This document shows, piece by piece, positions 10,701 to 49,704 of a stretch of DNA of 64,000 nt. The DNA is from Eledone cirrhosa (taxonomy: Eukaryota). The DNA is taken from NCBI GenBank assembly GCA_964016885.1, contig OZ024740.1, positions 379,502,001 to 379,566,000 of the forward strand. The letters are read 5' to 3'. The translations under genes were made by a program, and so were the position numbers. The notes below the pieces were generated by a model, which was given only the letters and a program-made list of their open reading frames with translations, was not told the origin of the DNA and searched no databases. Numbering within the stretch: position 1 is the stretch's first letter; each line of letters begins with the position of its first letter.

Positions 10701-11185
10701 CACCCCCCTCTATCGGGACATGCCCCTACATAGTCCCAACGTGCATCCAGGATACCATTCCAGTCCCCCACTAAAAGCAAGGAGCGAGACGTTCCCAGGA
10801 AATTCTCCAGGCGTCGGAAGAAGTCCGGTCGCCGTGTCCCAGATGGGGCATACGCTGCCACCAGCCTGAAAGCTCAACCTTCACCACTGCCGACGTCTAA
10901 AACCACCAGTCGACCCTCCGGGTCCAGGTGTACCTTCTGTGTGGCAAGACCTAGGTATTTTCGCAGCAGAACGACAACCCCACCCCCACCCCTCGGCTGA
11001 CAGAGAGATGCGTAGATCTCAAAGTCGTCGAAGATGGGGGCCAGTTGGCGCTCGCTGCTGATCCTGGACTCGCAAATAACCATTACATCCACTCTGTGCG
11101 ATCTGAGGTCATTTAAGAGTTTGCCCTGTTTCCAGTACATCCCCAAGCCGCGTGCATTCACACATCCCACTCTTATATTGGCCAT
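7756..11185 (-). pseudogene. Tx1 ORF2 (APE endonuclease + reverse transcriptase + zf-RVT), frameshifted
   Basis: Motifs NIRVGCVNARGL, AAYAP, LLVGDWN, SDHK, FRPITLLNTELKIL, DQSKAFDRVDH, RQGCPLS, CPRC..EETVAHAFVHC are spread over several frames; the YADD motif is damaged (..SVADD). Confidence 0.9.
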
Positions 11186-11227
11186 GTTGGTGCTGAAGAG
11201 TTAAAAAGGAAGAGGAAAGGAAATTAC

Positions 11228-11954
11228 TTACCTCTTCGTCTCCTGGGGACCAGGCTGCATAATTTCCATGGGGGTGTTGGAAGGGTTGTTTGGTGGGGTG
11301 GTGGTTTGTGGTGGGGTGAGGACATCAGTGTGTGGTGGGATTAGGGTGTTTGGTGGGGTGTGGGTGTCTGGTGTGGGGGTGGGGAAACATCTCAATAGGA
11401 CGTGGTTAAGTGGTTTGGTGCAGTTGGTCCCCCACATGCATTGGATGGTTCTTTTTCAAAGTTACATAGGTTTCCGTTGGGACCCTAATCATCATTAGGT
11501 GCGGTTTGCTCGCTGCGTAGGTGAAAGTGATCCCTTCGGTGGAAACCGAAGGGTTATTTTCTATTGCTTTCATCAACGTTTTATTGTTCTTGTTAATGTA
11601 TGTATAGAGTTTTTGTTGTGTTGTGTTTGTTTTTGTTTGTGCGTGTTTGCGTTTTGTAGTATGTGTTATGTTTTGGGGAGGGGTGGGTTTTTTTGTTTGT
11701 GATGTTTGTTGTTTGTGCTGGTGGTTGTGTGTTTGTAGCATTTTTGTTGATGTGGTGCCTTTTTTTTTCCTTTTCACCTGTTGAAAGGGTTCTCCCTCGT
11801 CGTCACTGGGTGACGTTGATACGGAGTTCTCTTCCGTGTTGTTGGGGAGGGTTATATTTTGGGGTTTTGTTGTGGTTGCTTTTGTATTTGTTTTAGGTGG
11901 GGAGGGGTTGGGTGGAACAGTGTTTTGTGTTGTTATTTTTCCGTGTTGTTGTGG

Positions 11955-11994
<40 letters not shown>

Positions 11995-12940
11995 GGTGGT
12001 GGTGGTGGTGGTGGTGGCTGTGTTGTTGTGTTCGGGGTTGGCAGAAGAGCCTTTTTTTTTACTCGTTAATTGAGGACAGGCAGCCCTCAGGTGACCCCTG
12101 CTTAAGCAGTGGTAACATGACGGCCGCCTTCCCTCCACTGAAATGTTTATATAAGTTAGCCCGTCCAGAGGCACGCGTTGTGGGATATTCGCTATTCGTT
12201 CTGGGCTCATTTGCACCAGAACTTCTACGCTGGTCCCACCAAATACACCTCCGGAGGACTTTCCTATTGAAATTATCTTGTCTTCATCAAAGTCAATGAT
12301 TCCACATAATATCCACCAAATATTTACATTTGGTGTGATACTCATTATTTTTATTCTTTGTGTCCTTTTTCCCCTGTATGTGGGGAAAAGGTGAAGCGGG
12401 GGGACACAATGGGTGATACCGAGTACTTTTGTGCTGTTGACTGGTTGTTCATTAGCACCGAAATGCTACCAAACAGTTTACCTTTTTGTGTGAAGGTTAT
12501 GTCCTTCATTGCATCTTTTAGAACCAGCTCAATTTCATTTTGTGATAATTGAGCTGCTTTTCTTGTTTCGTTCGATATTGTACTGAAAACTGTGGTTTTC
12601 AGGACAGCCTATCTACGTAATTCCTGTGGAGAATTGATGCTAAAAGCACCGGTTTCGCCAAAAGTCACGAATTGTTTTGCGTCTTGTAGTAGTTGTTTAG
12701 CATTTGTTATGTCTATTGGCGTGTATAGTTCGTTTTTTTTTAGTCTGTGCGAATGTTGTTTTGGTGTTGTGTCTTTTTTGTAGCTGCTGTTGTTGTCATT
12801 GTTGGTAATATTGTTCATGTTTTCCTTGGTGTTGCTATTGTTGCAGTTGTTGGTTGTGGTGTTATTGTCATTGTTCTTGTTGTTGGTGCTGGTATTATTT
12901 ACCGGGTTTGGTTTCGTTGTTTCAATATTTTCAACGTTTT
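11228..12940 (-). pseudogene. Tx1 ORF1 (gag-like zinc knuckle), frameshifted
   Basis: VEGRRPSCYHCLSRGHLRAAC CCHC knuckle and a low-complexity T/N-rich tail upstream of ORF2; boundaries approximate. Confidence 0.7.
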
Positions 12941-16984: not shown

Positions 16985-17328
16985 TTTTTATGAAAGATAG
17001 GTGAAAGTGGCGAGAATGGCCCGTGTGAATGGGCCTTCACTCTACATCAGACTATAGGTGAGGAAGATGAAAGACCAAGGGAGCACCCCCTCTCTGTGCT
17101 CCTGGGGAGAAGGGTTGCACACTTTTTTTCGGGGGGGGGGGCGACCCCCCAAGGCGCCTCCTCCCTATTGAGGATTTTGTTACAAAATTTATTTTATTAT
17201 ATTTTATTTTATTTTTATACTTTTATATCTTGTTATTGCCTCCTCCATATTCAGGACGCCTTTGCATGTAAACTCCCTCCTTTGTACTTGTCCCACTTTT
17301 GATGCCCTGGTGGCAAATAAAAAGAAAG
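16985..17328 (+). mobile_element. Tx1-type LINE 3' end, truncated copy A
   Basis: FYER*VKVARMARVNGPSLYI followed by the 3' UTR; bounded by (TCTA)n on both sides. Confidence 0.85.
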
Positions 17329-17347
17329 TTATCTATCTATCTATCTA

Positions 17348-18830
17348 TGGCGTCGTCGGACGCTGGACGGAGGGCCCGGTGAAGTTGCTCGGGGTCTGGT
17401 TCGGACCGGACCTCCAGGTGGAGAAAAACTGGGCGGAGGTTACGAACAGGGTGTTTGCACTGACCCAGAAGTGGGCCAGTTGCAAACTATCCCTGAAAGG
17501 TCGGGCGGAGGTGGCGAACACCTACATAGCGTCCGTCATCTACTACCGCCTGACCGTAGTGCCCTGCCCAAGGGAAACCCTCACCAAGATGGAGCGCGCG
17601 CTCTTCCAATTCCTTTGGAAGAGGCGGGCTCCTATGGTGAGGAGATCCATCTGCTGTCAACACCCTTCGAAAGGGGGGCTGGGGATGCCGTGGCTAATGA
17701 TGCGTAAACACGCATTAAGGCTACGGCACCTCTACGTATTCCTCACCGGACAACCGGTGTGGGCCTCGTTTGTGAGACGAACCTTTCCCAGACTCGTCTC
17801 ACTCACCGAGCTGCAATCCTGGGTCAAGCAAAGACCGAGAAAACTGGGCGCCTGGCACACTGAGTGTGCCCAGGCGCTCACCGCCCTCTGGCAGGCGGAT
17901 CCGGTTATCAGTGGAGACTCCACCGCAACATTCTATAGAGGGCTGGTACGCAGCAGGTGCGACGACGCCCTCGGAGAAGCCCTAGACATGGAGGAGGACG
18001 AACTGGCCGGCCTGTTCGGTAGGACATTCAGCCCGGGACCTATGGACAACTTCCAGAAGTCCCTGGCCTGGCAGTGCTACCGAGGAGCTTTACCCGTTCG
18101 AGAAAGGCTCTACAGACACGGGCGCCCGGGTAAGGACCCCGCCAAAAAGATCTGTCCCAGATGCGTGTGCGACGAGGAAACCGTTGCACACGCATTGGTA
18201 CACTGCTCGGGCGTAGCCGATCTGTGGGGCTATGTCGAACAACTGCTGTCAAAGGTGGGACCGATCCGGTTGACCACCGAGTCTATTGTGATGATCAAGC
18301 CGCCTCCCCCCTTCAAAGATGAAGCAGAGGCGGTGTTTCTGTGCGTAATAGCCATGGCGAAAGAGGTTGTATGGTGGACGCGTCTGAAAGGACTGAGGTC
18401 AGGCACCTTTCTCTCTGGCCAACAACTGGTCCGTTTCTTCCGATATCATTTCGGAAGAAGGATCAGGATGGAGAGAGAGGTGCTGCACCCCAGTCGTTTT
18501 TATGAAAGGTGGGTGAAAGTGGCGAGAATGGCCCGTGTGAATGGGCCTTCTCTTTACATAAGCCTGTAGGTGGAAAAGAGGAAGGAACGAGGGAGCACCC
18601 CCTCTCTGTGCTCCTGAGGAAAAGGGTTGCACACTTTTTTCGGGGGTGTGTGCGACCCCCCAAGGCGCCTCCTCTCTATTGAGGATTTTGTTATAATTCT
18701 ATTTTTTGTTATATTTTATTTTATTTTTATATATTGTTATTGCCTCCTCCCTATTGAGGACGCCTTGTTTTGTAAACTCCCTCCATTGTACTTGTCCCAC
18801 TTTTGATGCCCTTGTGGCAAATAAAAGAAA
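17348..18830 (+). mobile_element. Tx1-type LINE, 5'-truncated copy B (ORF2 C-terminal part open to 18569)
   Basis: Protein nearly collinear with the 7756-9000 ORF; same 3' UTR; flanked by (TCTA)n. Confidence 0.9.
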
Positions 18831-18832
18831 CA

Positions 18833-18897
<65 letters not shown>

Positions 18898-18908
18898 GTC
18901 TGTCTATA

Positions 18909-19727
18909 ACACCCTTGGAGAGTCGCTGGACATGGAAGAAGACGAACTGGCCAGCCTGTTCGGTAGGACTTTCGGCCAAGGACCAATGGACAACTTCCAG
19001 AAGTCACTGACCTGGCAGTGCTACCGGGGGGCTCTACCCGTTCGAGAGAGGCTCTACAGACACGGGCGCCCGGGCAGGGATCCCTCAAAAAAGATTTGCC
19101 CTAGATGCGTGCGTCACGAAGAAACCGTTGCGCACGCATTGGTGCAATGTCCGGGCGTGGCTGATCTGTGGGGCTACGCCGAACGACTGCTGTCGCGGGT
19201 GGCGCCGATTAAATTGACCGCCGAGTCCGTGATGACAATCAAACCGCCTCCCCTCTTCACAAAGGAAGCAAAGGCGGTTTTTCTGTGCGTAATAGCCATG
19301 TTGAAAGAGGTTGTTTGGTGGACACGATTGAAAGGTCTGAGGTCAGGCAACTTCCTCTCTGGCCATAGTCTGGTCTACTTCTTCCGATATCACTTCGGAA
19401 GAAAGATAAGAATGGAGAGAGAGGTGCTTGGCCACAGGCAGTTTTATGAAAGGTGGGTGATAGTGGCGAGAATGGCTCGTGTAAATGGGCCTTCTCTGTA
19501 TACCATCCTGTAGGTAAAGAAGTAAAGGAGAGGGGAGCACCTTCTCCATGTGCTCCCCGGGCAAAGGATTGCACACTTTTTCGGGGGTGTGTGCAACCCC
19601 CATCACGTCCCCTCCCTTTTGAGGTTATTTTCGATTATTTTCATGTTACACCCTTTTTACTCGATTATATGTAAACTCCCCCTTTGTATTTGTCCCTTCT
19701 TTTTATGCCTTTATGGTAAATAAAGAA
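18909..19727 (+). mobile_element. Tx1-type LINE, 5'-truncated copy C (diverged subfamily)
   Basis: zf-RVT region and 3' UTR; flanked by (TCTA)n. Confidence 0.9.
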
Positions 19728-20020: not shown

Positions 20021-20255
20021 ATATATATATATATGTATATCTATATATGTATATATATATATTTCGTTTCTGAATTTGTTTAGCAAGATTCTTTATCTGA
20101 AATCGTGTGTTGAAACCGATATTGTTATACTTTGGGAGGGTCATGTTGCCAATAAGAAACACACGCACCAGTTGCTTTCACTTCAATTTATTATAATAAA
20201 TTTATAAATTTCTGGTTGGTTGGTTAGTTCCACAACCAGATAGTTGTTTATATAT

Positions 20256-20300
20256 AGTCATAGTTCTTTCGTCACACACTCTGTGACCTCTTCAGTGACT
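20256..20300 (-). ncRNA. Minimal type I hammerhead ribozyme in PLE pseudo-LTR
   Basis: Reverse complement of the 23841-23885 motif. Confidence 0.8.
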
Positions 20301-20451
20301 GGGGATTCCTTTCTTTGTTTCTGTGCCTCTCCTTTGTTCTGTCCTACGCCATTTTGTTTCTGTGTGTGTGTTGTGTGCTCAGTCTGCGCATGCGCCACAT
20401 CCGGGTGTCTGTGTGTGTTTATGTTCATTTATTTATTTGTTTATTTACATG

Positions 20452-22997
20452 TTACTGGTTGGTTGTTTGTTCTATGTGTGTGTGTGTTTTCATTTTGTAA
20501 GTTGTGATGTTGCTGTTCCACTCATATTTTCTATTTAATTTTGGTTGTAATTCTTTTATGTTTATTGCCTCTGTAATTTGTCTAAACATTGCGTCTTTTC
20601 TGTGTGTAGATTCTATTTTTATTTCTATGTTCTCTAATTTACTCTTGTGTTCTATTTTAGCATGTTGGTAGAGTACAGATGATTCTTTATTATCTTGAAG
20701 GTCTCGCCAGTGTTCATTTATCCGTTCCCCTACACTACGAGCTGTCTCACTTATGTACACTATATATTTGTCTCTACATTGTCCTTCAGTACATCTTATG
20801 CTATACACTACATTTCTAGTTTTACAGTTAATATGGGGGCTTATTTTACAGGTTATACATTTCTTATCTATACATGAGGGTCTTTGAAAAGGGTATGTCT
20901 TGCTAATAAGTGTTTTTACGGAGGTACCTGGTCTTTCTACTATCTTAATATTGAGTTTATGTTTATTTAGGGCCCTTCTAAATTTGTAAGCTAATTCACC
21001 TCTAGGGGTTGTATCGATGAACATTACACTCTGGTATTTATTGCTATCATACCATGAGTTTATTCTATTAGCCTTGTTCCTAGTTCTTTCTATTCTATTC
21101 CAAAATTTGCTCCTATACAAGGGGGAGGTCCCATTTATGTCATTATTTACCATTTTTTCCCATTTGGTTCTGGCTCCTCTATACACTCTGATTCTATCTC
21201 TCTGATTGTAGCCAGAGAACTGCATACGGTGGATGAAGTGTTGTATGTGTCTCTCTAGTTCTTCGGGGTTGCACATGCGGGACACATTTCTCATCACCCG
21301 TACCAAATCCGCAATCAGTATGTTGATTTTGGTATGGTCCGAAACGGCCGAGTTTCGGTGGATCAGATGTTTGGAAGTCATGGGTTTGGCATAATGGGAA
21401 TGGAGGATTTGTTTTTTGTTGTTAATGGTATCTAACCAGAGCTCTGTGTCTAGTACAGGTAATCGATGGTTGGGGTGTTTACTTGGGTAGTCTATAGTAA
21501 CTCTAATGCTCTGGTGGATGGAGTTTGCTATTTGCTGGATGCTTTCCATTGTGTTTTTCTCTAGTTCCTGACTGTTCTCTAGTGGGGGTGTCTTAACTAC
21601 GATGTTTATATCATCTACGTAGCGGGAGTACATTATCAGGGTTAAGGGGTCTTCTAATTGTTCTTTAAGTTTAAGTTTAAGTCTACTGTCCCACCATACC
21701 ATGAATAAGTTAGCTATGTCGCCTGCAATGCTAACACCAATGGCTGCTCCTTCCACTTGGGCATATGTTTTTCCATTAAATTTGAACATATGTTCCTTAA
21801 GGGTTAGTTTTATGCTGGCCCCTACCGCATGTGCAATCATTTTCTTCGGTTCATCGTGGTTTTCGGGTGTCCGTACGGCTCTGGTCCACCCGTTCCATCT
21901 ATCTGTGTGGGTTTTCTTGGCCATTGAGGTAATGGTAGGTGGTCTGCCTCTTGCTGGTCTTGTAGGGCACAGGTTGCTAAGGTCATATGTGTCTAGGTAA
22001 TTATTACTATAGGTAAGCTTAAGTAGGAGTCCCAGCTCACCGGTATCAATCCCACGGAACTCAACCTTGCTCTCACTGATCATTTCTACGCATTTCTCCA
22101 CAGCAAAATCCACGTCAATAGATGGATACAGGGACACAACATCCATACTGCCTATTATGCAGTTTGTTAGGTCCCCAGATCGGTTACTCACGCCGATTCT
22201 GCTGAGGAGGTCCTCCGTGCTGTCACATACATCTGGGGACATTTCAATGATGGGGCGTATGATCAGGGAGAGGAAGTAGGACAGCCTGTAGTTACTAGCA
22301 ATGTTAGCTCCACAGACTGGCCGTGTTGGTGGTCCCGCGACAGGGTCACAGCCCGTTTTATGGTCTTTTCGAAGCCCATACAACGCCGGCACGTCATTGT
22401 TCCAGGCCTGGAAGTTGTTGGCAGTCCTTTTGTTGGGCTGCATTATATTCGTCCACATCACCATATGGGCATTGAGGGCTTTTTCTCTATCCTCATGCTC
22501 CTGTGGTGTTACCTCTCTTGTGTTAGTGATGTGGGTTGCATTGCCTGGATGTAGTTTGGCAGGCTGTCAACCGACATTCTGCCAGACTTGTCTGTTGGAA
22601 AGCATGCTATCTCTCCATTACGTGAGCGCTGCATGAGCTTACGCAAGCCATTTGCAGATTTTTCTCCCAGTTGCTGGGCCTCCATTCTATTATGCTTCTT
22701 GCTATACTGTTCTATAATATTTCTAAGTTCGGATCTAGCTATACTAAATTGTGCTTCTGTTTGTTCATCGACCTGCGACGGCAATTGCGTGCGTTTGTTA
22801 AATGGTAAAGTCGTGGCGTGGAATCGTCGCAGGTCGAATGATTTATCGGAGGGATTATAAAACGTAGAGTTCCAGGCTGCTGCTTTATGTGTACTAGTGC
22901 TATTGTTATTGTTAGTTGTGTTGTTTCTATTTCTATTTCCACCAACAGCCTCATGGTTGTTTCTATGTCTCTCACAATTACTCCTATCTCTTTCCAC
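20452..22997 (-). pseudogene. PLE polyprotein: reverse transcriptase, Cys-rich linker, GIY-YIG endonuclease; 5'-truncated, one frameshift near 22535
   Basis: TDKSGR, LYGLRKDHK, TRPV, SMDVVSLYPSI, GAAIG, RYVDD, CIDKKCITC..C, VVYSIRC..YISETAR..ERINEH. Confidence 0.9.
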
Positions 22998-23840
22998 TGG
23001 CTCATTGTTGTTATCTACCCTATTTTGTGTGTCTGTGTGTTCGTCTTGGTTATTCTCTTAGGAACAAGGCTAATAGAATAAACTCATGGTATGATAGCAA
23101 TAAATACCAGAGTGTAATGTTCATCGATACAACCCCTAGAGGTGAATTAGCTTACAAATTTAGAAGGGCCCTAAATAAACATAAACTCAATATTAAGATA
23201 GTAGAAAGACCAGGTACCTCCGTAAAAACACTTATTAGCAAGACATACCCTTTTCAAAGACCCTCATGTATAGATAAGAAATGTATAACCTGTAAAATAA
23301 GCCCCCATATTAACTGTAAAACTAGAAATGTAGTGTATAGCATAAGATGTACTGAAGGACAATGTAGAGACAAAAATATAGTGTACATAGGTGAGACAGC
23401 TCGTAGTGTAGGGGAACGGATAAATGAACACTGGCGAGACCTTCAAGATAATAAAGAATCATCTGTACTCTACCAACATGCTAAAATAGAACACAAGAGT
23501 AAATTAGAGAACATAGAAATAAAAATAGAATCTACACACAGAAAAGACGCAATGTTTAGACAAATTACAGAGGCAATAAACATAAAATAATTACAACCAA
23601 AATTAAATAGAAAATATGAGTGGAACAGCAACATCACAACTTACAAAATGAAAACACACACACACATAGAACAAACAACCAACCAGTAACATGTAAATAA
23701 ACAAATAAATAAATGAACATAAACACACAAAGACACCCGGATGTGGCGCATGCGCAGACTGAGCACACAACACACACACAGAAACAAAATGGCGTAGGAC
23801 AGAACAAAGGAGAGGCACAGAAACAAAGAAAGGAATCCCC

Positions 23841-23885
23841 AGTCACTGAAGAGGTCACAGAGTGTGTGACGAAAGAACTATGACT
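23841..23885 (+). ncRNA. Minimal type I hammerhead ribozyme in PLE pseudo-LTR
   Basis: AGTCA-CTGAAGA-G-GTCACA gagtg TGTGAC-GAAA-GAAC-TA-TGACT: stem I AGTCA/TGACT, stem II GTCACA/TGTGAC, conserved core, very short stem III. Confidence 0.8.
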
Positions 23886-24039
23886 ATATATAAACAACTA
23901 TCTGGTTGTGGAACTAACCAACCAACCAGAAATTTATAAATTTATTATAATAAATTGAAGTGAAAGCAACTGGTGCGTGTGTTTCTTATTGGCAACATGA
24001 CCCTCCCAAAGTATAACAATATATATATATATATGCACG

Positions 24040-26621: not shown

Positions 26622-26806
26622 GTATGCATACGTGCTAAGGCGAGAAATAAAATTCTAATTTTATTTTATATATATATATACACATACATGTAAGTCAGTG
26701 GGTCTATGTGAACATGCAATGGCAAAAATTTCGAAAGGCGACTGATATTTAACACACGCCTTTCTCCCTTTCAAATCAGTCCGGAAGCCACAAGTGTATA
26801 CTTGAA

Positions 26807-26897
26807 ATGGCGCGACGAAGAGATCTGCTTTGTTTTGCTCTATTGTTGGTTGTCAACTTTGCTGTAATCTCAACTAGAAATGTATTGGTTATTGTGG
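26807..26897 (+). CDS. SGSH: N-sulphoglucosamine sulphohydrolase (sulfamidase), exon 1
   Basis: Signal peptide MARRRDLLCFALLLVVNFAVIS followed by RNVLVIV-G; GT donor; phase 1 matches exon 2. Confidence 0.85.
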
Positions 26898-33250: not shown

Positions 33251-33592
33251 TGTGAACTAATTCTTTACACTAACTAGTAATTAATCCAGTTGTATAAAAC
33301 CTTGAAGGCACATGGCTTAGTGGTTAAAGCATTGGGCTTGCAATCGAAAGGTTGTGAGTTCAATTCTCGGACCGGGTGATGTGTTGTTTCCTTGAGCAAG
33401 ACACTTTATTTCACGTTACTCCAGTTTACTCAGCTGTAGAAATGAGTACCAGCCTGCCCGCCCAGCCAGTGGGATGGCGTTATCTTATGGCTAAAACAGC
33501 ATGACGTGCTGTGACCAGCGGCGCCGACTGGTCGGTCAAGGTGATAAAACATTGAACACATGTTAATTATCATAATTAATATATTCTGACAG

Positions 33593-33725
33593 GAGATGAT
33601 GCTGGTTTTGAGAGCCAAATATATAACAACAAGATTTGTAAAACACCAAATCTTAACCAATTAGCAAAACGCAGTGTGGTCTTTAACAGAGCCTATGCTT
33701 CAGTCAGCAGTTGCTCTCCAAGTCG
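33593..33725 (+). CDS. SGSH: Sulfamidase exon 2 (not in the ORF track)
   Basis: AG/GT bounded; GDDAGFESQIYNNKICKTPNLNQLAKRSVVFNRAYASVSSCSPSR, containing the formylglycine CxPxR motif. Confidence 0.95.
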
Positions 33726-34100
33726 GTAAGTATATCTTAGTTTACTATATAAACTTTGATCTTTCAGCATCAGATTCCTTTTTTCAATTCTTTCAGTGCC
33801 AGATTCATTATTGCCTTTTCAATTTACATTTTGTACTCTGATATTTGATGAAATATTTGATCTTCAGCTAAAAAAAAAAGTATATATCTGTGTATGTGTG
33901 TGTAAATATTACTCTCTAACCACCCCCACCACCACCACCCCCACCTCCACCATCAACATCACTATTGTCACCTATCATAACGACCACTACTACATTTCCC
34001 TTTGACAGGAAGGCTACCTTTCTGCATAAACTCAGTGACCATTATGTCCTCTTAATTATATATATATTCTAAAGAATATTAAATTAATCAATTAAATATA

Positions 34101-37100
34101 ATTAAGTCAAAGATGTACATCCATATATGTATACTGAAATACTAGTATGTATATGAATACACACACGTATACATATGTAGATGTACCAAGTTTTTTTTCA
34201 CTGATCACTTTACTGTGAGTGGCCAGCTATTCTGTATGAAAAGAATAGCTGGCCACTCACAGTAAAGTGATCAGTGAAAAAAAACTTGGTACATCTACAT
34301 ATGTATACGTGTGTGTATTCATATACATACTAGTATTTCAGTATACATATATGGATGTACATCTTTGACTTAATTGTTTGAGCGTCAGTCATACAAAAGT
34401 GAGTTACAAACGAAACAAAATTTAATTTCGTTTCGTTATTTCTTTTTATCGTCTCCGTTGAACCGGTACTTACTCACACTCTATGCAAGTTGGTCTGCCC
34501 ACTACTAATTTTCATAGAAAAAGCATATAGCGATATGTGCTTTTACGATTCTCTAGAGAGGCCGGAAGATAGGTAAATATTGCTGATGAGTTGTAACAAC
34601 AACGAAACTAGTTCAATATTCCTTGTCTGGCTTTCTGGAGAATAGAGGAAAGGTGTTTCCTCAAAAACCAGTATGACTCTAAAAACCGGTTTGTCTGTGT
34701 GTTTACATACAGAATAGCTGGCCACTCACAGTAAAGTGATCAGTGAAAAAAAACTTGGTACATCTACATATGTATACGTGTGTGTATTCATATACATACT
34801 AGTATTTCAGTATACATATATGGATGTACATCTTTGACTTAATTGTTTGAGCGTCAGTCATACAAAAGTGAGTTACAAACGAAACAAAATTTAATTTCGT
34901 TTCGTTATTTCTTTTTATCGTCTCCGTTGAACCGGTACTTACTCACACTCTATGCAAGTTGGTCTGCCCACTACTAATTTTCATAGAAAAAGCATATAGC
35001 GATATGTGCTTTTACGATTCTCTAGAGAGGCCGGAAGATAGGTAAATATTGCTGATGAGTTGTAACAACAACGAAACTAGTTCAATATTCCTTGTCTGGC
35101 TTTCTGGAGAATAGAGGAAAGGTGTTTCCTCAAAAACCAGTATGACTCTAAAAACCGGTTTGTCTGTGTGTTTACATACAGAATAGCTGGCCACTCACAG
35201 TAAAGTGATCAGTGAAAAAAAGAAGAAAAAAAAACTTGGTACATCTACATATGTATACGTGTGTGTATTCATATACATACTAGTATTTCAGTATACATAT
35301 ATGGATGTACATCTTTGACTTAATTGTTTGAGCGTCAGTCATACAAAAGTGAGTTACAAACGAAACAAAATTTAATTTCGTTTCGTTATTTCTTTTTATC
35401 GTCTCCGTTGAACCGGTACTTACTCACACTCTATGCAAGTTGGTCTGCCCACTACTAATTTTCATAGAAAAAGCATATAGCGATATGTGCTTTTACGATT
35501 CTCTAGAGAGGCCGGAAGATAGGTAAATATTGCTGATGAGTTGTAACAACAACGAAACTAGTTCAATATTCCTTGTCTGGCTTTCTGGAGAATAGAGGAA
35601 AGGTGTTTCCTCAAAAACCAGTATGACTCTAAAAACCGGTTTGTCTGTGTGTTTACATACAGAATAGCTGGCCACTCACAGTAAAGTGATCAGTGAAAAA
35701 AAAACTTGGTACATCTACATATGTATACGTGTGTGTATTCATATACATACTAGTATTTCAGTATACATATATGGATGTACATCTTTGACTTAATTGTTTG
35801 AGCGTCAGTCATACAAAAGTGAGTTACAAACGAAACAAAATTTAATTTCGTTTCGTTATTTCTTTTTATCGTCTCCGTTGAACCGGTACTTACTCACACT
35901 CTATGCAAGTTGGTCTGCCCACTACTAATTTTCATAGAAAAAGCATATAGCGATATGTGCTTTTACGATTCTCTAGAGAGGCCGGAAGATAGGTAAATAT
36001 TGCTGATGAGTTGTAACAACAACGAAACTAGTTCAATATTCCTTGTCTGGCTTTCTGGAGAATAGAGGAAAGGTGTTTCCTCAAAAACCAGTATGACTCT
36101 AAAAACCGGTTTGTCTGTGTGTTTACATACAGAATAGCTGGCCACTCACAGTAAAGTGATCAGTGAAAAAAAAACTTGGTACATCTACATATGTATACGT
36201 GTGTGTATTCATATACATACTAGTATTTCAGTATACATATATGGATGTACATCTTTGACTTAATTGTTTGAGCGTCAGTCATACAAAAGTGAGTTACAAA
36301 CGAAACAAAATTTAATTTCGTTTCGTTATTTCTTTTTATCGTCTCCGTTGAACCGGTACTTACTCACACTCTATGCAAGTTGGTCTGCCCACTACTAATT
36401 TTCATAGAAAAAGCATATAGCGATATGTGCTTTTACGATTCTCTAGAGAGGCCGGAAGATAGGTAAATATTGCTGATGAGTTGTAACAACAACGAAACTA
36501 GTTCAATATTCCTTGTCTGGCTTTCTGGAGAATAGAGGAAAGGTGTTTCCTCAAAAACCAGTATGACTCTAAAAACCGGTTTGTCTGTGTGTTTACATAC
36601 AGAATAGCTGGCCACTCACAGTAAAGTGATCAGTGAAAAAAAACTTGGTACATCTACATATGTATACGTGTGTGTATTCATATACATACTAGTATTTCAG
36701 TATACATATATGGATGTACATCTTTGACTTAATTGTTTGAGCGTCAGTCATACAAAAGTGAGTTACAAACGAAACAAAATTTAATTTCGTTTCGTTATTT
36801 CTTTTTATCGTCTCCGTTGAACCGGTACTTACTCACACTCTATGCAAGTTGGTCTGCCCACTACTAATTTTCATAGAAAAAGCATATAGCGATATGTGCT
36901 TTTACGATTCTCTAGAGAGGCCGGAAGATAGGTAAATATTGCTGATGAGTTGTAACAACAACGAAACTAGTTCAATATTCCTTGTCTGGCTTTCTGGAGA
37001 ATAGAGGAAAGGTGTTTCCTCAAAAACCAGTATGACTCTAAAAACCGGTTTGTCTGTGTGTTTACATACAGAATAGCTGGCCACTCACAGTAAAGTGATC

Positions 37101-38210
37101 AGTGAAAAAAAACTTGGTACATCTACATATGTATACGTGTGTGTATTCATATACATACTAGTATTTCAGTATACATATATGGATGTACATCTTTGACTTA
37201 ATTGTTTGAGCGTCAGTCATACAAAAGTGAGTTACAAACGAAACAAAATTTAATTTCGTTTCGTTATTTCTTTTTATCGTCTCCGTTGAACCGGTACTTA
37301 CTCACACTCTATGCAAGTTGGTCTGCCCACTACTAATTTTCATAGAAAAAGCATATAGCGATATGTGCTTTTACGATTCTCTAGAGAGGCCGGAAGATAG
37401 GTAAATATTGCTGATGAGTTGTAACAACAACGAAACTAGTTCAATATTCCTTGTCTGGCTTTCTGGAGAATAGAGGAAAGGTGTTTCCTCAAAAACCAGT
37501 ATGACTCTAAAAACCGGTTTGTCTGTGTGTTTACATACAGAATAGCTGGCCACTCACAGTAAAGTGATCAGTGAAAAAAAACTTGGTACATCTACATATG
37601 TATACGTGTGTGTATTCATATACATACTAGTATTTCAGTATACATATATGGATGTACATCTTTGACTTAATTGTTTGAGCGTCAGTCATACAAAAGTGAG
37701 TTACAAACGAAACAAAATTTAATTTCGTTTCGTTATTTCTTTTTATCGTCTCCGTTGAACCGGTACTTACTCACACTCTATGCAAGTTGGTCTGCCCACT
37801 ACTAATTTTCATAGAAAAAGCATATAGCGATATGTGCTTTTACGATTCTCTAGAGAGGCCGGAAGATAGGTAAATATTGCTGATGAGTTGTAACAACAAC
37901 GAAACTAGTTCAATATTCCTTGTCTGGCTTTCTGGAGAATAGAGGAAAGGTGTTTCCTCAAAAACCAGTATGACTCTAAAAACCGGTTTGTCTGTGTGTT
38001 TACATACAGAATAGCTGGCCACTCACAGTAAAGTGATCAGTGAAAAAAAACTTGGTACATCTACATATGTATACGTGTGTGTATTCATATACATACTAGT
38101 ATTTCAGTATACATATATGGATGTACATCTTTGACTTAATTGTTTGAGCGTCAGTCATACAAAAGTGAGTTACAAACGAAACAAAATTTAATTTCGTTTC
38201 GTTATTTCTT
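34101..38210 (+). mobile_element. Tandem array of ~469-bp hammerhead-containing units (candidate non-LTR retrozyme) in SGSH intron 2
   Basis: Units start at 34242, 34711, 35180, 35661, 36131, 36601, 37070, 37539 and 38008 (last one partial); inverted 138-bp piece at 34101-34238; 13-bp TSD TCAATTAAATATA (34088-34100, 38211-38223). Confidence 0.88.
34571..34623 (+). ncRNA. Type I hammerhead ribozyme, unit 1 (copies start at 35040, 35521, 35991, 36461, 36930, 37399, 37868)
   Basis: AATATTG-CTGATGA-GTTGT aaca ACAAC-GAAA-CTAG-TT-CAATATT: 7-bp stem I, 5-bp stem II, intact CUGAUGA/GAAA core, palindromic short stem III; predicted cleavage after GUU at 34613. Confidence 0.9.
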
Positions 38211-38272
38211 TCAATTAAATATATTTTTGCTTCAAATCATGTTTTTTTTTTGTTTTTTCTTTTACCTTACAG

Positions 38273-38406
38273 TTCTACAATACTAACTGGGTTGCCACAA
38301 CACGAAAATGGCATGTATGGACTTCATCATAAGGTTCATCACTTCAACTCTTTTGACCATGTCAAAAGTTTACCCTTAATTTTACGGAAAGCTAATATAA
38401 GGACAG
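38273..38406 (+). CDS. SGSH: Sulfamidase exon 3
   Basis: [37 protein letters not shown]; AG/GT bounded, phases consistent. Confidence 0.95.
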
Positions 38407-38856
38407 GTGAGGAAATATTTATCATCATCATCATTTAACATACATTTCCCTGCAAAGGTAGCAGTTTGTACACAAATGGAGCCACAGACCTCCAGGTGGG
38501 CCTGACATACGATCACGACTGTACTTTATCAATTGGTCTGATGAGCCAGGGTCCCAACATGCTGTTTTGAACATACATAATTCGAAAATATTTTGTTTAA
38601 TACAAAAAAGTTGTAAAACATTTAAATGACCTTTTCACATAAAACTGCATCAGCTAATCTAAGGGAGACAATTCTACCCCCTACTGTTATTCATTTTCCT
38701 CAGTTTTCCCAACCTCCAGATAACTTGTAATACATCCTCGTAAACATCAATATATACAGGCACTTTTATATAATGGCCTTGAAGTTATTGAGGAACTCGT
38801 TTTCACCAGTATTTCTATATTACATAGTGATTCATAAAGATTTATTTAATATATAA

Positions 38857-44143: not shown

Positions 44144-46358
44144 ATCATCATCATCATCATCATCACCGTTTTACGTCCGTTCTTCCACGCTAGCATGGGT
44201 TAGACGGGTTGTCCTGTTGTGGGCAGTGTCTGGTCGGCTGACCATGCCTTGCTCATACAGGAACTGATCTGGCTTGATTTCTACAGCTGGATGCCCTTCC
44301 TAACACCAACCTCATTTACAGTGAGTGCTGGGTGCTTTTTTGTGGCGCCTACACGTCCACTTTACAGTGTGGGCTGGGTGCTTTTTTGCCGTGGCACCTC
44401 CACGACCACCTTGCGGTGGGGGGGGGGGGGGCATATTGTTTATATGCTTCAGCATGTACCCATGGGAGGTCGGGTACCCTGTATTACTGCGTGACGCCAG
44501 AAGTCACGGTCGTGTGTCATTGACTTTGAGAGGTGTAGTTGGGTAAGGTCGGCTTTTATCACCTCATCCCAAGTCATCTTGGGTCTCCCCACTCCGCGGT
44601 TTCCATCAACTTCTAGTGCTCTGCACCTTTTTATGCAGCTGTCATCCTTCATACGCATCACATGTCCATACCAGCGTAACCGCCTCTCCTGCACGCAGCA
44701 TTTGATTCCTCTTATGCTCAGTCTCTCTCTCAATTCATTTATGCTTTGTCGTTCACGTATATTACTGTTACACATCCATCGGAGCATGCAGGCTTCGTTT
44801 CTCTCTAATCTACGTAAGTCTTCCACCTTCAGCACCCAGGTCCCACTACCATGCAACATCGCTGTTCGGATACACGCATCATACAGTCTGCCTTTCATTC
44901 TGAGGGAGAAGCCTTTTGCAGCTAGCAGTGGTAGTAGTTCCCTAAACTTCTTCCATCCCGTTCTTACCCTAGTTATTGTACTTTCTGAGCACCCACCTCC
45001 GTTGCTAATTCGGTCACCTAGGTAGCAGAAGCTGTCTACTGTTTCTACAGGGCCCTCCCAGAGATTGGTGGTACTTGTTTCCTGTGGCTGTTTGCTTGCT
45101 GTTTCAGCACAGCTGCTGCATGTGAATCCTACATTCTTAATTAAGCTTCCTGAGATCCCGCTACATCTCTTGTGTACCCATTGTTTGCATTTGGGGCAAA
45201 GAATGGAGTTCCTACCTACACCTTTCCTACATACTGAGCAAGGCCATTTCCCTGAGGGGATCTGGGTTCTGTTTTCTCGTCTACTTATAAGGACCTTAGT
45301 CTTTGTCATGTTGACTTTGAGGCCCTTTCTCTCTAGTCCCTGCTTCCAGGTTTGGAATTTATTCTCTAGTTCTACCATAGATTCAGCTATGAGTGCGAGG
45401 TCATCAGCATACAGGAGTTCCCATGGGCATCCGGTCTTAAACTCCTCCGTTATTGCCTGCAGGACTATGATGAACAGGAGAGGGCTAAGAACAGAGCCCT
45501 GGTGGACCCCAACCTGTACGCTAAATTCCTCGCTATACTCATTGCCAATCCTAACTTTGCTGACTGCTCCCCTATACATGGCTTGTACCGCTTTCACAAG
45601 CCATTCATCTACTCCTAGTTTTCTAAGAGCCCACCAGATTACTGCACGTGGAACTCTGTCAAAGGCTTTCTCAAGGTCGACAAATGCCAAGTAGAGTGGC
45701 TTACTTTTAGCTAGGTACTTTTCCTGTAATTGCCTCACAAGGAAGAGCGCATCAGTGGTGCCTTTCCCTGGTACAAACCCAAATTGCATCTCGTCTATAT
45801 TCACCCGGTCCCTAATCAGCTGTGCTATAACTCTTTCTGTTACTTTCATGACCTGGTCCATCAACTTTATACCTCTATAGTTTCCTCTATCTAGTGCATC
45901 GCCTTTACCTTTGTAGCAGTTGACAATGATGCTACTGCACCAATCTTTTGGTATGGCCCCCTCTAGTATTACCTGGTTAACGATACATGTGGTTATAGTG
46001 TGACCTACAGACCCAGATGCCTTCAGCATCTCGGCAGCTATACCCGATGGGCCGGTTGCCTTCCCTATCTTCATATCTCTGATTGCCTTACTTACTACGC
46101 TGCCGCTGACTTGTACTGCTGGTCCCTCTATAGGGTCTACGTGGGGTAGGGTCTCTTCTTCCCATGCATTCTCCTCATTTAGTAATCTATCATAATGACT
46201 CTTCCATGCATCTTTCTTCTCAGCACTTGTGAGGGCAAGCTCACCTTTATCATTCCGGATACACTTCTCTCCAATGACATCACAACTATCTCTGACACAC
46301 TGCCTCGCAATCTTGAATACCTCCTGTTTCTGGTCCTCACGTTGTAAAACATGCTTAA
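44144..46358 (-). mobile_element. 5'-truncated RTE-group LINE with an open RT frame (44449-46074 and upstream)
   Basis: NYRGIKLMD, AFVDLEKAFDRV, GVHQGSVLSPLLF, LYADD, an internal C4HC3 finger, 3' UTR and (ATG)n tail. Confidence 0.92.
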
Positions 46359-47262
46359 ATATACAGTGAAATTAACAAGTGTTTTATTAATTTTCAGCCC
46401 TAAATTCTAATCATCTCATGAATGAAAATTAAAGCTGGGCTTTGCTACATAAACTATATGAAGTCAAAATTTTCAAGTAGTTCCCATCATACTCAATTAG
46501 TTATGGGACATAAATAGATACACACAAGTTAATATAAAGCTCTATAAATGCTACTGTCATTATGGTGTTGTTGTTTTCAAGTAATGATTCAAGAGATTCA
46601 CTAGAAGAAACTGCCACTGTCTTTTCTTGTCCTTCGAATAATTTGAACTCAGCACTGAAATCTAAGGCAACATCATAATTCTACAGTGTGGTTGTACCAC
46701 ATAACCAACTATGGACTGCAAAATTCATGATAATTATTTTAAAGCTAGTGAGACTAGGCCGTCAAGAGTATATAATCTTCGTTTAGGACATAGCACAACC
46801 CTGATTACATCTTAGTGAAATCTGATGAAATCCATAAAGAAAAACTTCAAGTGATGTTTCTATAACTTACACATCATCATCACCATTTAAAATCCTTTTT
46901 CCATGTTTGTATGGGATAGATGAAAAGTCAAGTTCTGAGGCTAGACCAGTAAAATAACTACATTCCATTTTTGGCTTAGTTTGTATGGCTGGGCCAACCA
47001 CTTTACAGCATATATTGGGAGCATTTTACCATGACACCACCTTACAAGGTGGACTGAGTCTTTTTTTTATCATGGCACCAGCATTGCTATTTTACAGAGT
47101 GAGCAGGATGTGTTTTATCATGGCAACAATATGACCACTTTACAGAGTAAGTTGGGTGCATTTTATTGAGGAACCAACATACATTTAATTTCTAATGGAA
47201 CTGACTTGCATTTAGTTCATCAATTGTGTAAACAATAGAAATTTTCAAATAATGCAAATAAT

Positions 47263-47926: not shown

Positions 47927-49077
47927 GTATAACTAACTTTTATATGAGACTGATGTTTAGAACACAATGTAAAAAATGTTCTTATATACAATTAGTCTTT
48001 AAAGTGAGAGGTTATGTAGAATGGAAGTTTCAAATTAATTAAATATATTTAAATAAAGTTGATTATGAAATTTATATTTAGTAAAATGAATTATGCTTCA
48101 GTTCAAGGGAAAAGATAAAAGTCCAAATCTTATTCTGTATTTACATTTGTATTTGATACTGAAATAATACTATTTAAGTGGTAGGAATTAAAAGATTTCC
48201 CTGGGTTTTGAGAAACAGGGACTCTTTCTCTCTGAAGAATGCTTTATTGAAGATGTTTGTCGGAAGCATGCTGTTACATGCAAGTAAAACTGGGGGCAGT
48301 AAAGTCAAAGAACATACAAAATGGAAGAGGAATGAGTTAATTCAGCTACTCATTAGGTTTCATCTACTAAAATACAACAAACAGTTAAATATAATCTAAT
48401 GGGTTTACAATGTAAATTTGATAAATATTTCAAGTACCAAAGAGAATGAAAGAGAATTATAATAATATCTTTACTGAATGTGGATTTATGTCCTATGCTA
48501 GAGAAAAAATGGTGCAATAAGTTGATATTGAAAAGTACAAAGATAGAGCAAGAAAATTTGGAATAAAGTAGCGAGATTGGATGTTTAAAAATAAGTTCTT
48601 ACAAATAAGGTGCAGGATTGTGAGGAGGGGAAGGAGATTTATCTGATTATTGGTCCAAATAATTGTTTCTACTTTAGGTACAAGGCCAACATTTTTTTGG
48701 GGGGAGGTCGATTACATGTGCATTACAGGTACTTCATTTTACCGACACCGTAAAGATAAAAGGCAAAACTAAGCTTGGCGAGATTTGAACTCAGAACGTA
48801 ACTATGCAATGCAGCTATATTGCATCAATGTTCTCCTAGGGTATAGAACCAAGTTGCAAACTATTTCAATATCTCACATTATGAAAAGAATATTTTAATC
48901 AAATATTTTCTCTCATAATTCATACGAGACCCTCAAATTACAGAACTGATGAACCTATTCTTGTATATAGTAAATATTAAATATAAACTGCTATTCATAG
49001 TGCTGATGATGTTGGAGTGAGGGCAAATATCCCTAAATGTATTATTTTGTTTTCATATTTTATCTTTTCATTTTCAG

Positions 49078-49704
49078 AGAAGTGACTCATTTGTTTCCCT
49101 TTTGGATATAGTGCCTACTATATTGGATTGGTTCCAAATACCATATCCTCATTATAAGCTGTTCAGAAATCACATTAGATTGACTGGAAATTCTCTCTTA
49201 CCATTGTTACACTCTAAATCTGAAAATGATATTAATCAACTGTCAAAACAGGTATCAGCTGTGTATTCAAGTCACAACCTTCATGAAGTTACAATGTATT
49301 ACCCTATGAGATCTGTTCGTACATCAAATTATAAACTGATTCATAACCTCAATTACAAAATGCCATATCCTATTGATCAAGATTTCTATTTGTCTTCAAC
49401 CTTTCTTGACTTACTGAATCGTACCAGATCAAAATTACCAACTAAATGGTCAAAAACTCTGCACCAATATTATTACAGGGATCAATGGGAGCTTTATGAT
49501 ATCCACAATGATACAGCTGAACTCATTAATGTAGCATATAAACCTGAGTATAAAACTATATTAACATCTCTAAAGAATTTGTTACACCATTGGCAAAATG
49601 TGACAAATGATCCCTGGATCTGTGGTCCTGGTGCTGTACTTGAAAATAGTGGATATTATAAATTCAATCCCCATTGTATGGCATTGGATAATGAATTAAT
49701 GTAA
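49078..49704 (+). CDS. SGSH: Sulfamidase exon 7 (last coding exon)
   Basis: SLLDIVPTILDWF...HEVTMYYPMRS...PIDQDFY...DPWIC...DNELM*; the joined exons give 1554 nt in frame (517 aa); AATAAA signals follow. Confidence 0.95.
   Translation, partial: RSDSFVSLLDIVPTILDWFQIPYPHYKLFRNHIRLTGNSLLPLLHSKSENDINQLSKQVSAVYSSHNLHEVTMYYPMRSVRTSNYKLIHNLNYKMPYPIDQDFYLSSTFLDLLNRTRSKLPTKWSKTLHQYYYRDQWELYDIHNDTAELINVAYKPEYKTILTSLKNLLHHWQNVTNDPWICGPGAVLENSGYYKFNPHCMALDNELM

Follow-up and report, generated by a model that had tools for sequence, protein, structure and literature searches.

The vertebrate intronic hammerheads HH9 and HH10 (Rfam RF02275) are conserved and single-copy. For metazoan non-LTR retrozymes a circular intermediate and a PLE partner have been proposed (PMC7229834). 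In the sources considered, movement via circles with PLE enzymes has been proposed and not shown, and the tandem and inverted structure of PLEs is called undefined (PMC7229834; bioRxiv 10.64898/2026.07.22.740005). PLEs cleave and extend both strands, with reverse transcription from two internal sites leading to a 'tail' (PMC11167929), and inverted 5' copies with a one-sided tail are given as their hallmarks (PMC3846280; bioRxiv 10.1101/2021.04.23.441226). Here we explore a hammerhead-bearing tandem array in an intron of SGSH. We consider it likely, as one joint reading, that the array arose by one very recent insertion, still polymorphic, of a retrozyme family without coding capacity, that a PLE-type enzyme inserted it from circular RNA on both strands of an AT-rich target, and that SGSH carries it as a passenger and is not regulated by it.

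The window, by which we mean the whole stretch of 64,000 nt analysed and to which all positions refer, contains SGSH in a continuous reading frame across four exons, with GT-AG introns. Exon 2 matches human SGSH 4mhx with an E-value of 4.5e-9 and the last exon matches Pfam SGSH_C with an E-value of 1.8e-13. Intron 2 is so numbered by counting from the first coding exon; an upstream non-coding exon is possible. The gene and the array are laid out as follows.

26807..26897, + strand: first coding exon of SGSH, signal peptide, ...RNVLVIVG
33593..33725, + strand: SGSH exon 2, with its 3' end in CSPS-R, after CG
33726..38272, + strand: GT-AG intron, 4547 nt with the insertion and 424 nt in the empty allele
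34088..34100, + strand: left TSD copy, 11-13 nt, with a 1-nt ambiguity at either end
34100..34238, - strand: short inverted arm, unit 465 to 134, terminating at fixed site B and without a ribozyme
34242..38211, + strand: forward arm of 8 full 469-nt units plus 204 nt, terminating at fixed site A
38211..38223, + strand: right TSD copy
38273..38406, + strand: SGSH exon 3
49021..49704, + strand: open frame containing the last SGSH coding exon (SGSH_C)

The tandem array (34242-38211) has a period of 469, 8.4 copies and 99% matches, and its GC content is 0.33-0.36. A single A-run is the sole difference between the units, with 0 substitutions across 9 units, and the array stops at unit position 204, the local equivalent of site A (about 208 in the family). 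A perfect inverted arm of 134 nt precedes it, 34100-34233 pairing with 34242-34375. Neither this arm nor the 11-13-nt TSD appears in the first-pass annotation. The intron 33726-38272 holds no ORF of at least 150 aa and the array no RT and GIY-YIG ORF; it is not an autonomous PLE. Features of metazoan non-LTR retrozymes that the SGSH array shares are tandem units some hundreds of nt long with one type I hammerhead apiece, the lack of a long ORF, a GC content under 45-50%, dispersal as a mobile family and a TSD longer than 4 bp. The variant pair 176A+201C is carried by 9/9 units. It has 8 full genome matches, all within the SGSH array, and none elsewhere in one haploid assembly among the best 40 candidates scored. 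Because the pair was found nowhere else, the SGSH copy would have left no assembled daughter, which, the copy being young, is weak evidence against the significance claimed for it in the first-pass annotation.

An 824-nt contig of public run X1 matches 33498-34100 joined to 38211-38444 with 0 differences, and thus represents an empty allele with a 424-nt intron and a single-copy target site. Runs X1 and X3 both give the empty path at this intron, and the insertion junction was seen in none of the public runs examined. Since an empty allele occurs in a public run the insertion is polymorphic, and the intron is older than the array, being present without it. The same observations could be explained by an assembly artefact in which a repeat was misplaced into the SGSH intron, as the junction is absent from the runs examined and X1 and X3 follow the empty path. 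However, the TSD is clean, the insertion ends at the canonical sites A and B, its variant pair is unique to the locus, and while its copy number could be off, its existence could not; we regard such an artefact as highly improbable. The first-pass annotation had the intron growing from about 0.42 to 4.5 kb, the array ending about 60 nt before the exon 3 acceptor and the intron falling within the Arg codon of CSPSR. These figures hold: 424 nt against 4547 nt, 61 nt from the 3' end of the array to the acceptor, and an Arg codon split as CG-T. The last 61 intron bases are host sequence identical to the empty allele, and the splice signals of the array-bearing intron are host sequence as well.

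Eight hammerheads are predicted in the forward arm.

34576..34620, + strand: hammerhead 1, core start 34583, predicted cut after 34613
35045..35089, + strand: hammerhead 2, core start 35052, predicted cut after 35082
35526..35570, + strand: hammerhead 3, core start 35533, predicted cut after 35563
35996..36040, + strand: hammerhead 4, core start 36003, predicted cut after 36033
36466..36510, + strand: hammerhead 5, core start 36473, predicted cut after 36503
36935..36979, + strand: hammerhead 6, core start 36942, predicted cut after 36972
37404..37448, + strand: hammerhead 7, core start 37411, predicted cut after 37441
37873..37917, + strand: hammerhead 8, core start 37880, predicted cut after 37910, 362 nt upstream of the acceptor

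Their cores are mutually identical and all lie on the + strand, which is the sense strand of SGSH, as the first-pass annotation had recognized; the GUU triplet it named is likewise confirmed, as is a 2-bp palindromic stem III. The motif has the CUGANGA and GAAA cores, the NUH triplet (GUU), helices I-III and the open helix I of type I, with a stem I of 7 bp and a stem II of 5 bp, for which pair probabilities of 0.63-0.99 are predicted. GUU hammerheads cleave more slowly than GUC hammerheads. GUU is counted among the active NUH sites (PMC3138052). Folding and profile scores argue that the motif is not due to chance, because the unit has a folding z of -8.6, the Rfam HH9 model matches with an E-value of 6.7e-8 (37.7 bits, gathering 52) and a reversed-pattern control for the core had 0 matches in the genome. 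An Rfam scan of the hammerheads at gathering score returned no match, and a metagenome scan using the motif gave 0 matches. Rfam matches to miRNA and sRNA families on an AT/GT hairpin were dismissed, lying far below gathering scores. Among the matches listed, stem II shows a compensatory U-A/A-U swap between subfamilies, at one pair only. Run X4, which was treated as RNA-like solely because one contig joins exons, contains pieces of the retrozyme family as well as a spliced-type SGSH contig that covers exon 2 alone; its contigs reveal neither RNA ends nor circles.

Genome-wide the family counts 9,146 intact cores, 4,673 on the + and 4,473 on the - strand, divided into a GUU (6,028) and a GUC (3,118) subfamily; the exact 36-mer of the core has 4,972 copies. 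Distant relatives of the unit, at 60-70%, occur at three loci. Insertions were studied in two sets: 34 loci closely resembling the window unit, and the first 27 exact-core loci of contig C1, unselected for likeness elsewhere. Loci with two arms of at least 40 nt each were scored as two-armed. These form the majority in both sets (23/34 and 17/27), the remainder including one-armed loci or loci with only a tiny or complex second arm (8/34 and 10/27). Since the cores are strand-balanced and the insertions mostly two-armed, ribozymes in sense orientation would be expected in many intronic copies. The sense orientation that the first-pass annotation had singled out is hence the default for the family, and the SGSH locus is not special among its insertions.

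The arms end at fixed positions. One end at site A and the other at site B was found in 22/22 resolved two-armed loci of the close-unit set, the 23rd abutting an N gap (p 5e-7 under independent choice), and in 15/17 of the C1 set (p 0.002), where L117 (B+B) and L095 are the exceptions among the 17 unbiased two-armed loci. At L047 a short inverted piece ends at neither usual site. Sites A (about 208) and B (about 134) are 74 nt apart, and such pairing at two fixed sites corresponds to the Penelope 'tail' signature. An (AT)n flank is present at 43/46 two-armed loci and, outside pure AT, 9/10 TSDs measure 9-13 nt. The family thereby displays the inverted 5' arm, the one-end tail, the AT-rich target and the TSD of about 8-13 nt of PLE-type insertions. 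A young autonomous PLE family in the same genome likewise targets (AT)n and shares this two-end layout. The 74-nt tail, against 30-40 nt in published PLEs, was counted against a PLE reading. When one PLE family (30 copies) was compared with the unit, no autonomous partner and no pLTR homology were found. The PLE in the window was rejected as direct parent, sharing only simple AT/GT repeat with the unit.

From this anatomy we infer cleavage, circles and a partner enzyme in the following order. A source array would be transcribed, and its dimer-dependent hammerheads would cut the transcript to 469-nt monomers, to be ligated into circles. A PLE RT/GIY-YIG protein would then cut the target with a stagger of about 12 nt, and the two target 3' ends would prime reverse transcription at the fixed internal sites A (about 208) and B (about 134). 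Each cDNA would run around its circular template; at SGSH the one started at A would have made 8.4 turns and the one started at B 0.3 turn. The last step would be a head-to-head junction of the two cDNAs, at a point that varies.

Hyper-editing, seen as A>G on the sense strand, marks three older copies (L127, L141 and L142). All 6 pieces of both arms at L142 share 16 such changes wherever these are covered, and the pattern matches 100% at L142 alone, with 89% for the next best among the best 40 candidates. L141 corresponds to precisely one turn of 469 nt whose opening lies at site A, and of its changes 61 are A>G and 4 are of other kinds; 52/61 edits are preceded by U or A, against a background of 96/146 (p 2e-5). 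The edited monomer of L127, with 25-27 A>G, no T>C and two G>A changes, is private to the locus among the best 40 candidates; it repeats in both arms in the same order with a period near 5, which 2/13 forward monomers break, and every border between edited and unedited sequence falls inside a 135-nt window containing the predicted cut site. The three copies are members of the older GUC subfamily, unlike the SGSH array. Hyper-editing was met in 1/66 loci scanned, which is not a random pick; L141 and L142 were found with an edited query. Private variants were sought in one haploid assembly, with the best 40 candidates scored per DNA search. Among variants confined to one unit A>G is not in excess (10 A>G vs 17 T>C); among multi-unit variants it is (23 vs 5), almost wholly owing to L127. 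Five diagnostic sites of the youngest subfamily also read A>G, a post hoc observation not counted as evidence.

The edited genomic copies imply a putative sense RNA template, and shared private variants together with A>G edits suggest that a single edited RNA circle was copied in rolling-circle fashion from both target strands. We lean, with little more than even confidence, towards ADAR edits acting as per-molecule barcodes, by which a single hammerhead-made circle can be traced as having been reverse-transcribed rolling-circle from both strands of a Penelope cut with two fixed starts. The two arms concur at 212/236 non-reference sites. Some variants are confined to few units with periods of 2-4 (period 2 at L035, L039 and L051), and at L025, L029 and L049 one unit has the same private variant in both arms; judging from these sequences, both would need mixed multimer templates or later conversion.

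Heterogeneous units common to both arms at L025, L029 and L049 would also suit a PLE-primed insertion whose template was a long linear multimer left uncut, transcribed from a source array outside the assembly, with no circle and with the ribozymes bypassed. The anole PLE indeed uses uncut RNA as its main substrate, and its hammerhead mutants insert normally (PMC11167929). Yet three private patterns (the SGSH pair, L127 and L142) are without a source copy among the best 40 candidates, identical per-molecule edits in every unit still require a single-unit template one step earlier, and the L127 borders cluster around the cut site. This route seems quite unlikely to us. Li et al. 2026 put forward a satellite route of in-place amplification (bioRxiv 10.64898/2026.07.22.740005), under which a monomer or short copy would be inserted, then expanded by unequal crossing-over or slippage, while gene conversion spread variants between the arms. 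Such growth would likewise fix a private variant in every unit, and the local periodic variants (L035, L039, L051) and the two period breaks of L127 fit later rearrangement. But the SGSH allele is polymorphic and, without a substitution in 9 units, already 8.4 units long; arrays of 10-20 units are frequent at loci of 0.1% divergence; the 16 edits of L142 would need transfer to all 6 pieces across the inversion, and L141 is one exact permuted turn. We therefore hold in-place growth to be decidedly unlikely and retain insertion by a PLE-type enzyme from a circle as the probable route.

What the array does to SGSH is a separate matter. The first-pass annotation supposed that the eight hammerheads, cutting during transcription, compete with the joining of exons 2 and 3 and lower SGSH output, and that SGSH transcription feeds retrozyme RNA, a reading compatible with a PLE/circle origin that differs in claiming a real effect on the gene. 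Stems I and II are predicted to form, and eight tandem copies supply dimer partners; in axolotl, cleavage is far more efficient in dimers than in monomers (PMC7229834). Splicing is aborted by fast intronic ribozymes, and the CPEB3 ribozyme modulates the mRNA of its host gene (PMC10919898). Slow ribozymes reportedly were without effect. According to work cited in PMC2995048, splicing of a hammerhead-cut intron was as efficient as that of an uncut one and was aborted by a fast ribozyme only. PLE-type hammerheads are, moreover, weak or protein-dependent in vitro. In Xenopus, retrozymes are fewer in introns than expected after size correction, but introns still overlap 42-44% of copies, and 8/9 dimers failed to cleave, by the figures given in bioRxiv 10.64898/2026.07.22.740005. 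Against an effect we also count that the allele is polymorphic, its variant is without an assembled daughter copy and its splice signals are host sequence. We would expect slow cleavage relative to splicing, and hence at most a modest effect on SGSH mRNA; a real regulatory effect appears unlikely.

Of the first-pass claim the anatomy stands, in that the array is real and any pre-mRNA of the allele would contain the eight motifs, while the significance attached to it is unsupported. That a catalytic motif is split is incidental, since an array-free form of the intron exists and, when the intron is retained, the frame hits a stop directly after the Arg codon, so any splicing failure would be null whatever the motif. 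The array is not a conserved regulatory intronic ribozyme of the CPEB3 type, because an empty allele exists and the family has 9,146 cores; it is neither fixed nor single-copy nor conserved.

As a ribozyme switch on SGSH the array is a weak finding, one polymorphic copy of many. If the proposed route is true, the genome itself would directly attest the circular intermediate and the PLE machinery that have been suggested for animal retrozymes, and rolling-circle copying would account for the inverted-arm and tail structure of PLEs. With its thousands of young copies, the family allows the route to be tested from assemblies alone, through the pairing of A and B ends and the edit barcodes. The segregating SGSH allele would be a natural test of the effect of eight intronic ribozymes on splicing, and its present and absent forms allow exon tethering to be tested allele by allele on natural ribozymes. 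Through the writing back of edited RNA into the genome, A-to-I editing would also have a route to changing DNA. Searches of a largely open-access literature on retrozyme editing by ADAR, hyper-edited retrotransposed copies and cephalopod edited copies listed no paper whose title or opening of the abstract deals with such write-back, which is no proof of novelty.

Among described systems, the retrozymes of coral, mussel and axolotl (Cervera and de la Pena 2020, PMC7229834) are alike in their low-GC tandem repeats with one type I hammerhead per unit, in lacking an ORF, in a TSD of more than 4 bp and in dispersed copies, as far as that account describes them. Their units measure 150-450 nt, against 469 nt here. 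The word 'inverted' is absent from that paper, whose passages on structure mention no pairing of fixed ends, no second long arm and no marks of editing; circles and cleavage, on the other hand, were shown there at the bench, where we infer them. The animal retrozymes that Li, Clavereau and Pollet (bioRxiv 10.64898/2026.07.22.740005) regard as derived from PLEs share tandem type I arrays, co-occurrence with PLEs and many intronic copies. That preprint, in its main outline, argues for pLTR homology and local amplification, whereas the SGSH family has no pLTR homologue in the family tested, a PLE-like footprint and multimers apparently present at insertion. Endonuclease-bearing PLEs (PMC11167929; PMC3846280; bioRxiv 10.1101/2021.04.23.441226) resemble it, in the features these sources detail, by a head-to-head inverted 5' arm, a one-end tail, an AT-rich or microsatellite target and a hammerhead with a palindromic helix III. 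Their TSDs are 8-10 bp in print against 9-13 here, and unlike them the retrozyme family has no RT/endonuclease ORF, a tail of 74 nt and two arms that can both reach many units. Finally, the intronic regulatory ribozymes CPEB3 (PMC10919898) and vertebrate HH9/HH10 (Rfam RF02275) likewise place a sense-strand self-cleaving motif in an intron; the CPEB3 ribozyme is, on the published description, single-copy and conserved, whereas the SGSH array is a polymorphic member of a mobile family of 9,146 cores.

The host gene SGSH lies on the + strand: exon 2 matches 4mhx, the last exon matches SGSH_C, and a reading frame runs across four exons through CSPSR with GT-AG introns. This four-exon reading places the following intron where the first-pass annotation had put it.

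33726-38272, + strand: SGSH intron carrying the array, interrupting the Arg codon of CSPSR

Within it, 34242-38211 is a tandem array in which a 469-nt unit is repeated 8.4 times. Its nine units show zero substitutions, the sole variation being one A-run (+1, +1, +12 nt), and every full unit holds an identical type I hammerhead on the + strand (stem I of 7 bp, CUGAUGA, stem II of 5 bp, GAAA, a palindrome-closed 2-bp stem III). The earlier claim of eight hammerheads on the SGSH pre-mRNA strand stands, array and gene both being on +, as does the GUU triplet, found in each full unit. In the predicted fold, stems I and II form. An Rfam scan of the array gave nothing at gathering score; the HH9 match to the hammerhead (E 6.7e-8) falls below it. 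The left end of the insertion is a perfect 134-nt inverted arm and the target-site duplication (TSD) measures 11-13 nt; arm and TSD, absent from the first-pass annotation, define the insertion event.

The insertion is polymorphic. Sequencing run X1 yielded a single 824-nt contig in which 1-603 equals 33498-34100 and 591-824 equals 38211-38444 with zero differences. This is the empty site, with the target present once and an intron of 424 nt, which bears out the ~0.42 kb proposed earlier. Run X3, from the same sample, also gave an 824-nt contig, with 2 differences over the left part, the part compared. Filled and empty alleles both exist, whether or not this sample is the assembled animal. Since a 1,922-nt contig from run X4 skips the intron and runs from exon 2 through exon 3 into the beginning of the exon after it, the exon 2-3 junction is spliced; the contig may stem from either allele. 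Directly 5' of the first coding exon a pyrimidine tract plus CAG (26760-26806) suggests that a non-coding exon lies further upstream, in which case the introns would be numbered differently. A very abundant repeat, probably a SINE, lies in intron 1; its tRNA-like head is at 33313-33520 and scores 29.8 bits with the Rfam tRNA model.

Insertion ends were compared in two locus sets. The first (n=34) consisted of 33 loci from the best matches listed for the unit plus the window locus. Both arms were at least 40 nt in 23 of the 34, and all 22 that were resolved have one end at unit position 204-211 (site A) and the other at 129-138 (site B); the remainder were three loci with a tiny second arm (two A+B, one not) and eight one-armed loci. 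The second set (n=27), taken in order along contig C1 with the exact core as the only criterion, held 17 two-armed loci: 15 A+B, one B+B and one other. Outer ends are fixed and the inner arm junction is variable; of the TSDs that can be read outside pure AT, 9 of 10 measure 9-13 nt. An inverted 5' copy, a one-ended tail and a short TSD make up the footprint of Penelope-like elements (PLEs) (bioRxiv 10.1101/2021.04.23.441226; PMC3846280), and the A/B-ended insertions show this footprint. At AT-rich DNA, the protein of the anole PLE cuts both strands and extends them, and reverse transcription starts at two internal sites, which delimit the tail (PMC11167929). The tail of the retrozyme family, from A to B, is 74 nt.

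The same layout, with a 56-nt tail and an (AT)n target, is seen in a young autonomous PLE family of the genome, one copy of which lies near SGSH.

20063-24022, - strand: PLE copy 5' of SGSH, in a (TG)n/(AT)n tract, with an inverted arm of ~1 kb and a 56-nt tail
20452-22566: PLE ORF of 704 aa with RT and GIY-YIG-like parts, separated from a frame upstream of it
20295 (-) and 23846 (+): hammerhead of the PLE terminal repeat

Pfam returned only a weak RVT_1 match for the frame, and its GIY-YIG label is putative. The family is very large and young, with 34,451 candidates and, among them, 150 scored copies of at least 96%. No real sequence similarity was found between it and the 469-nt unit; it is a candidate partner of the retrozyme. 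Other long frames, at 7756-12465, 17172-19513, 44449-46371 and 63388-63903, presumably represent LINE-like reverse transcriptases and their 3' parts; that at 44449-46371 lies within SGSH, antisense.

Private variants bear on the template. All nine SGSH units carry the pair 176A+201C, a pattern with eight full genome matches, all at SGSH (the ninth unit is cut short). By itself, 201C turns up at 7 other single places and 176A 295 times. A new variant in each unit fits a single unit copied 8.4 times. Three further loci carry A>G edits, two of which (L141, L142) were found by searching with an edited query.

L142, C11:6433527-6435719, B+A: older GUC-type two-armed array, six pieces
L141, C28:60890502-60890970: exactly one unit, permuted, starting and ending at site A, older GUC type
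L127 (L130/L131), C2:95687874-95695158, B+A: older-subfamily array with a hyper-edited monomer

L142 has 16 sense A>G changes common to both arms wherever covered, and this pattern matched at 100% at L142 only, the next being 89% (best 40 of 83 candidates). In L141, A>G accounts for 61 changes and all other types together for 4, with U or A as 5' neighbour in 52 of the 61 (p 2e-5), the neighbours that ADAR prefers. The edited monomer of L127 (25-27 A>G, zero T>C) is private to the locus, forms forward-arm monomers 1, 3, 6, 8 and 13 and other-arm monomers 1 and 3 from the outer ends, returning in both arms near period 5, and its borders fall inside a 135-nt stretch containing the cut site. Hyper-editing occurred in one of 66 scanned loci, that locus not being a random pick.

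Because editing acts per molecule, identical edits in all units and both arms point to one sense RNA, which would have been read repeatedly, starting from both target ends; edits common to units and arms would be explained most simply by a circular template. It is possible that a source array absent from this haploid assembly supplied variants and edits. Limits on this reading are the period breaks and partial variants, signs of later conversion or of mixed templates, and the strand symmetry of single-unit variants. Variants that recur within one arm with a period of 4 or 3 (three times each) or of 2 (L121, L114+115, L110, L035, L039, L051) may stem from multimeric circles or from the duplication of blocks.

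Genome-wide there are 4,972 copies of the exact 36-nt core; with stem II left free there are 6,028 GUU and 3,118 GUC cores, strands even, and reversed-pattern controls gave 0. As the first 100 exact matches group into about 27 loci, ~1,300 loci are suggested for the exact motif alone. The subfamily of the window unit is very young, given 108 substitutions in 114 kb across the 34 nearest loci. The SGSH locus is ordinary for its family; a short second arm and a site outside an (AT)n tract (3/46) are the only atypical traits of its copy. Since most insertions are two head-to-head arms, sense ribozymes would be present in many of the intronic copies, in either orientation. At unit position 372 the cut triplet is GUC in older and GUU in younger subfamilies. 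GUU cores exceed GUC about 2:1: GUU, presumably the slower triplet, was no bar to spread. Positions 126, 139, 248, 251 and 289 mark the youngest subfamily with G, mostly A in sister subfamilies; editing may drive subfamily change. Stretches of 60-70% identity to the unit (L025:947-1063, L123:1864-2101, L099:2082-2332) are distant relatives of it, candidates for older families of retrozymes or for the terminal repeats of a partner. All three runs with other organism labels that were compared against 33300-34241 or 37743-38700 (X5, X6, X8) contain the unit without the SGSH sequence on either side of it. In X5 a 503-nt contig aligns over 139 nt with no substitution and 3 gap letters, and the tRNA-like repeat of the host has no depth in that run; in X6 and X8 the unit is present as several variants at about 92-100%. 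These may reflect contamination, a relationship between the species or horizontal transfer.

With the array in sense in the intron, the inserted-allele pre-mRNA contains hammerhead motifs; a measurable ribozyme-driven effect on SGSH is improbable. Several points speak against a large one: a monomer would need a longer helix III (PMC4209133), the anole PLE ribozyme needed protein and left no read ends in RNA-seq (PMC11167929), and 8 of 9 Xenopus dimers showed no cleavage (bioRxiv 10.64898/2026.07.22.740005). A hammerhead-cut intron was spliced normally, splicing being aborted only by a fast ribozyme (Dye 2006 and Fong 2009, as cited in PMC2995048 and PMC10919898). For some effect speak the efficient cleavage of axolotl dimers (PMC7229834), the possible tuning of host mRNA by the CPEB3 ribozyme (PMC10919898) and the eight predicted cleavage sites. 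The perfect 134-bp hairpin carried by the inserted-allele pre-mRNA at 34100-34375 (folding energy -235 kcal/mol) is a possible ADAR or Dicer substrate, and a donor-like GTGAG, a consensus match only, occurs in sense at unit position 158 in 9/9 units; both are candidate routes to transcript disturbance. A simple-pattern search of the units found neither a polypyrimidine acceptor nor a poly(A) hexamer. While the array, its sense hammerheads and the Arg-codon intron were correctly described by the first-pass annotation, the significance it gave to the CSPSR position falls away: the intron is older than the array, and a retained intron hits a stop directly after the Arg codon. A regulatory reading of the array is unlikely.

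No paired start sites or edit barcodes in retrozymes were found in a search of non-subscription literature by title or abstract start, and as evidence of mechanism both go beyond the papers compared. The value of the locus rests on this family mechanism and on the natural present/absent allele pair. The SGSH array is neither an autonomous PLE nor a conserved regulatory ribozyme; at the level of sequence, its family has the features described for metazoan non-LTR retrozymes (PMC7229834), and we regard it as a new family of this known kind.
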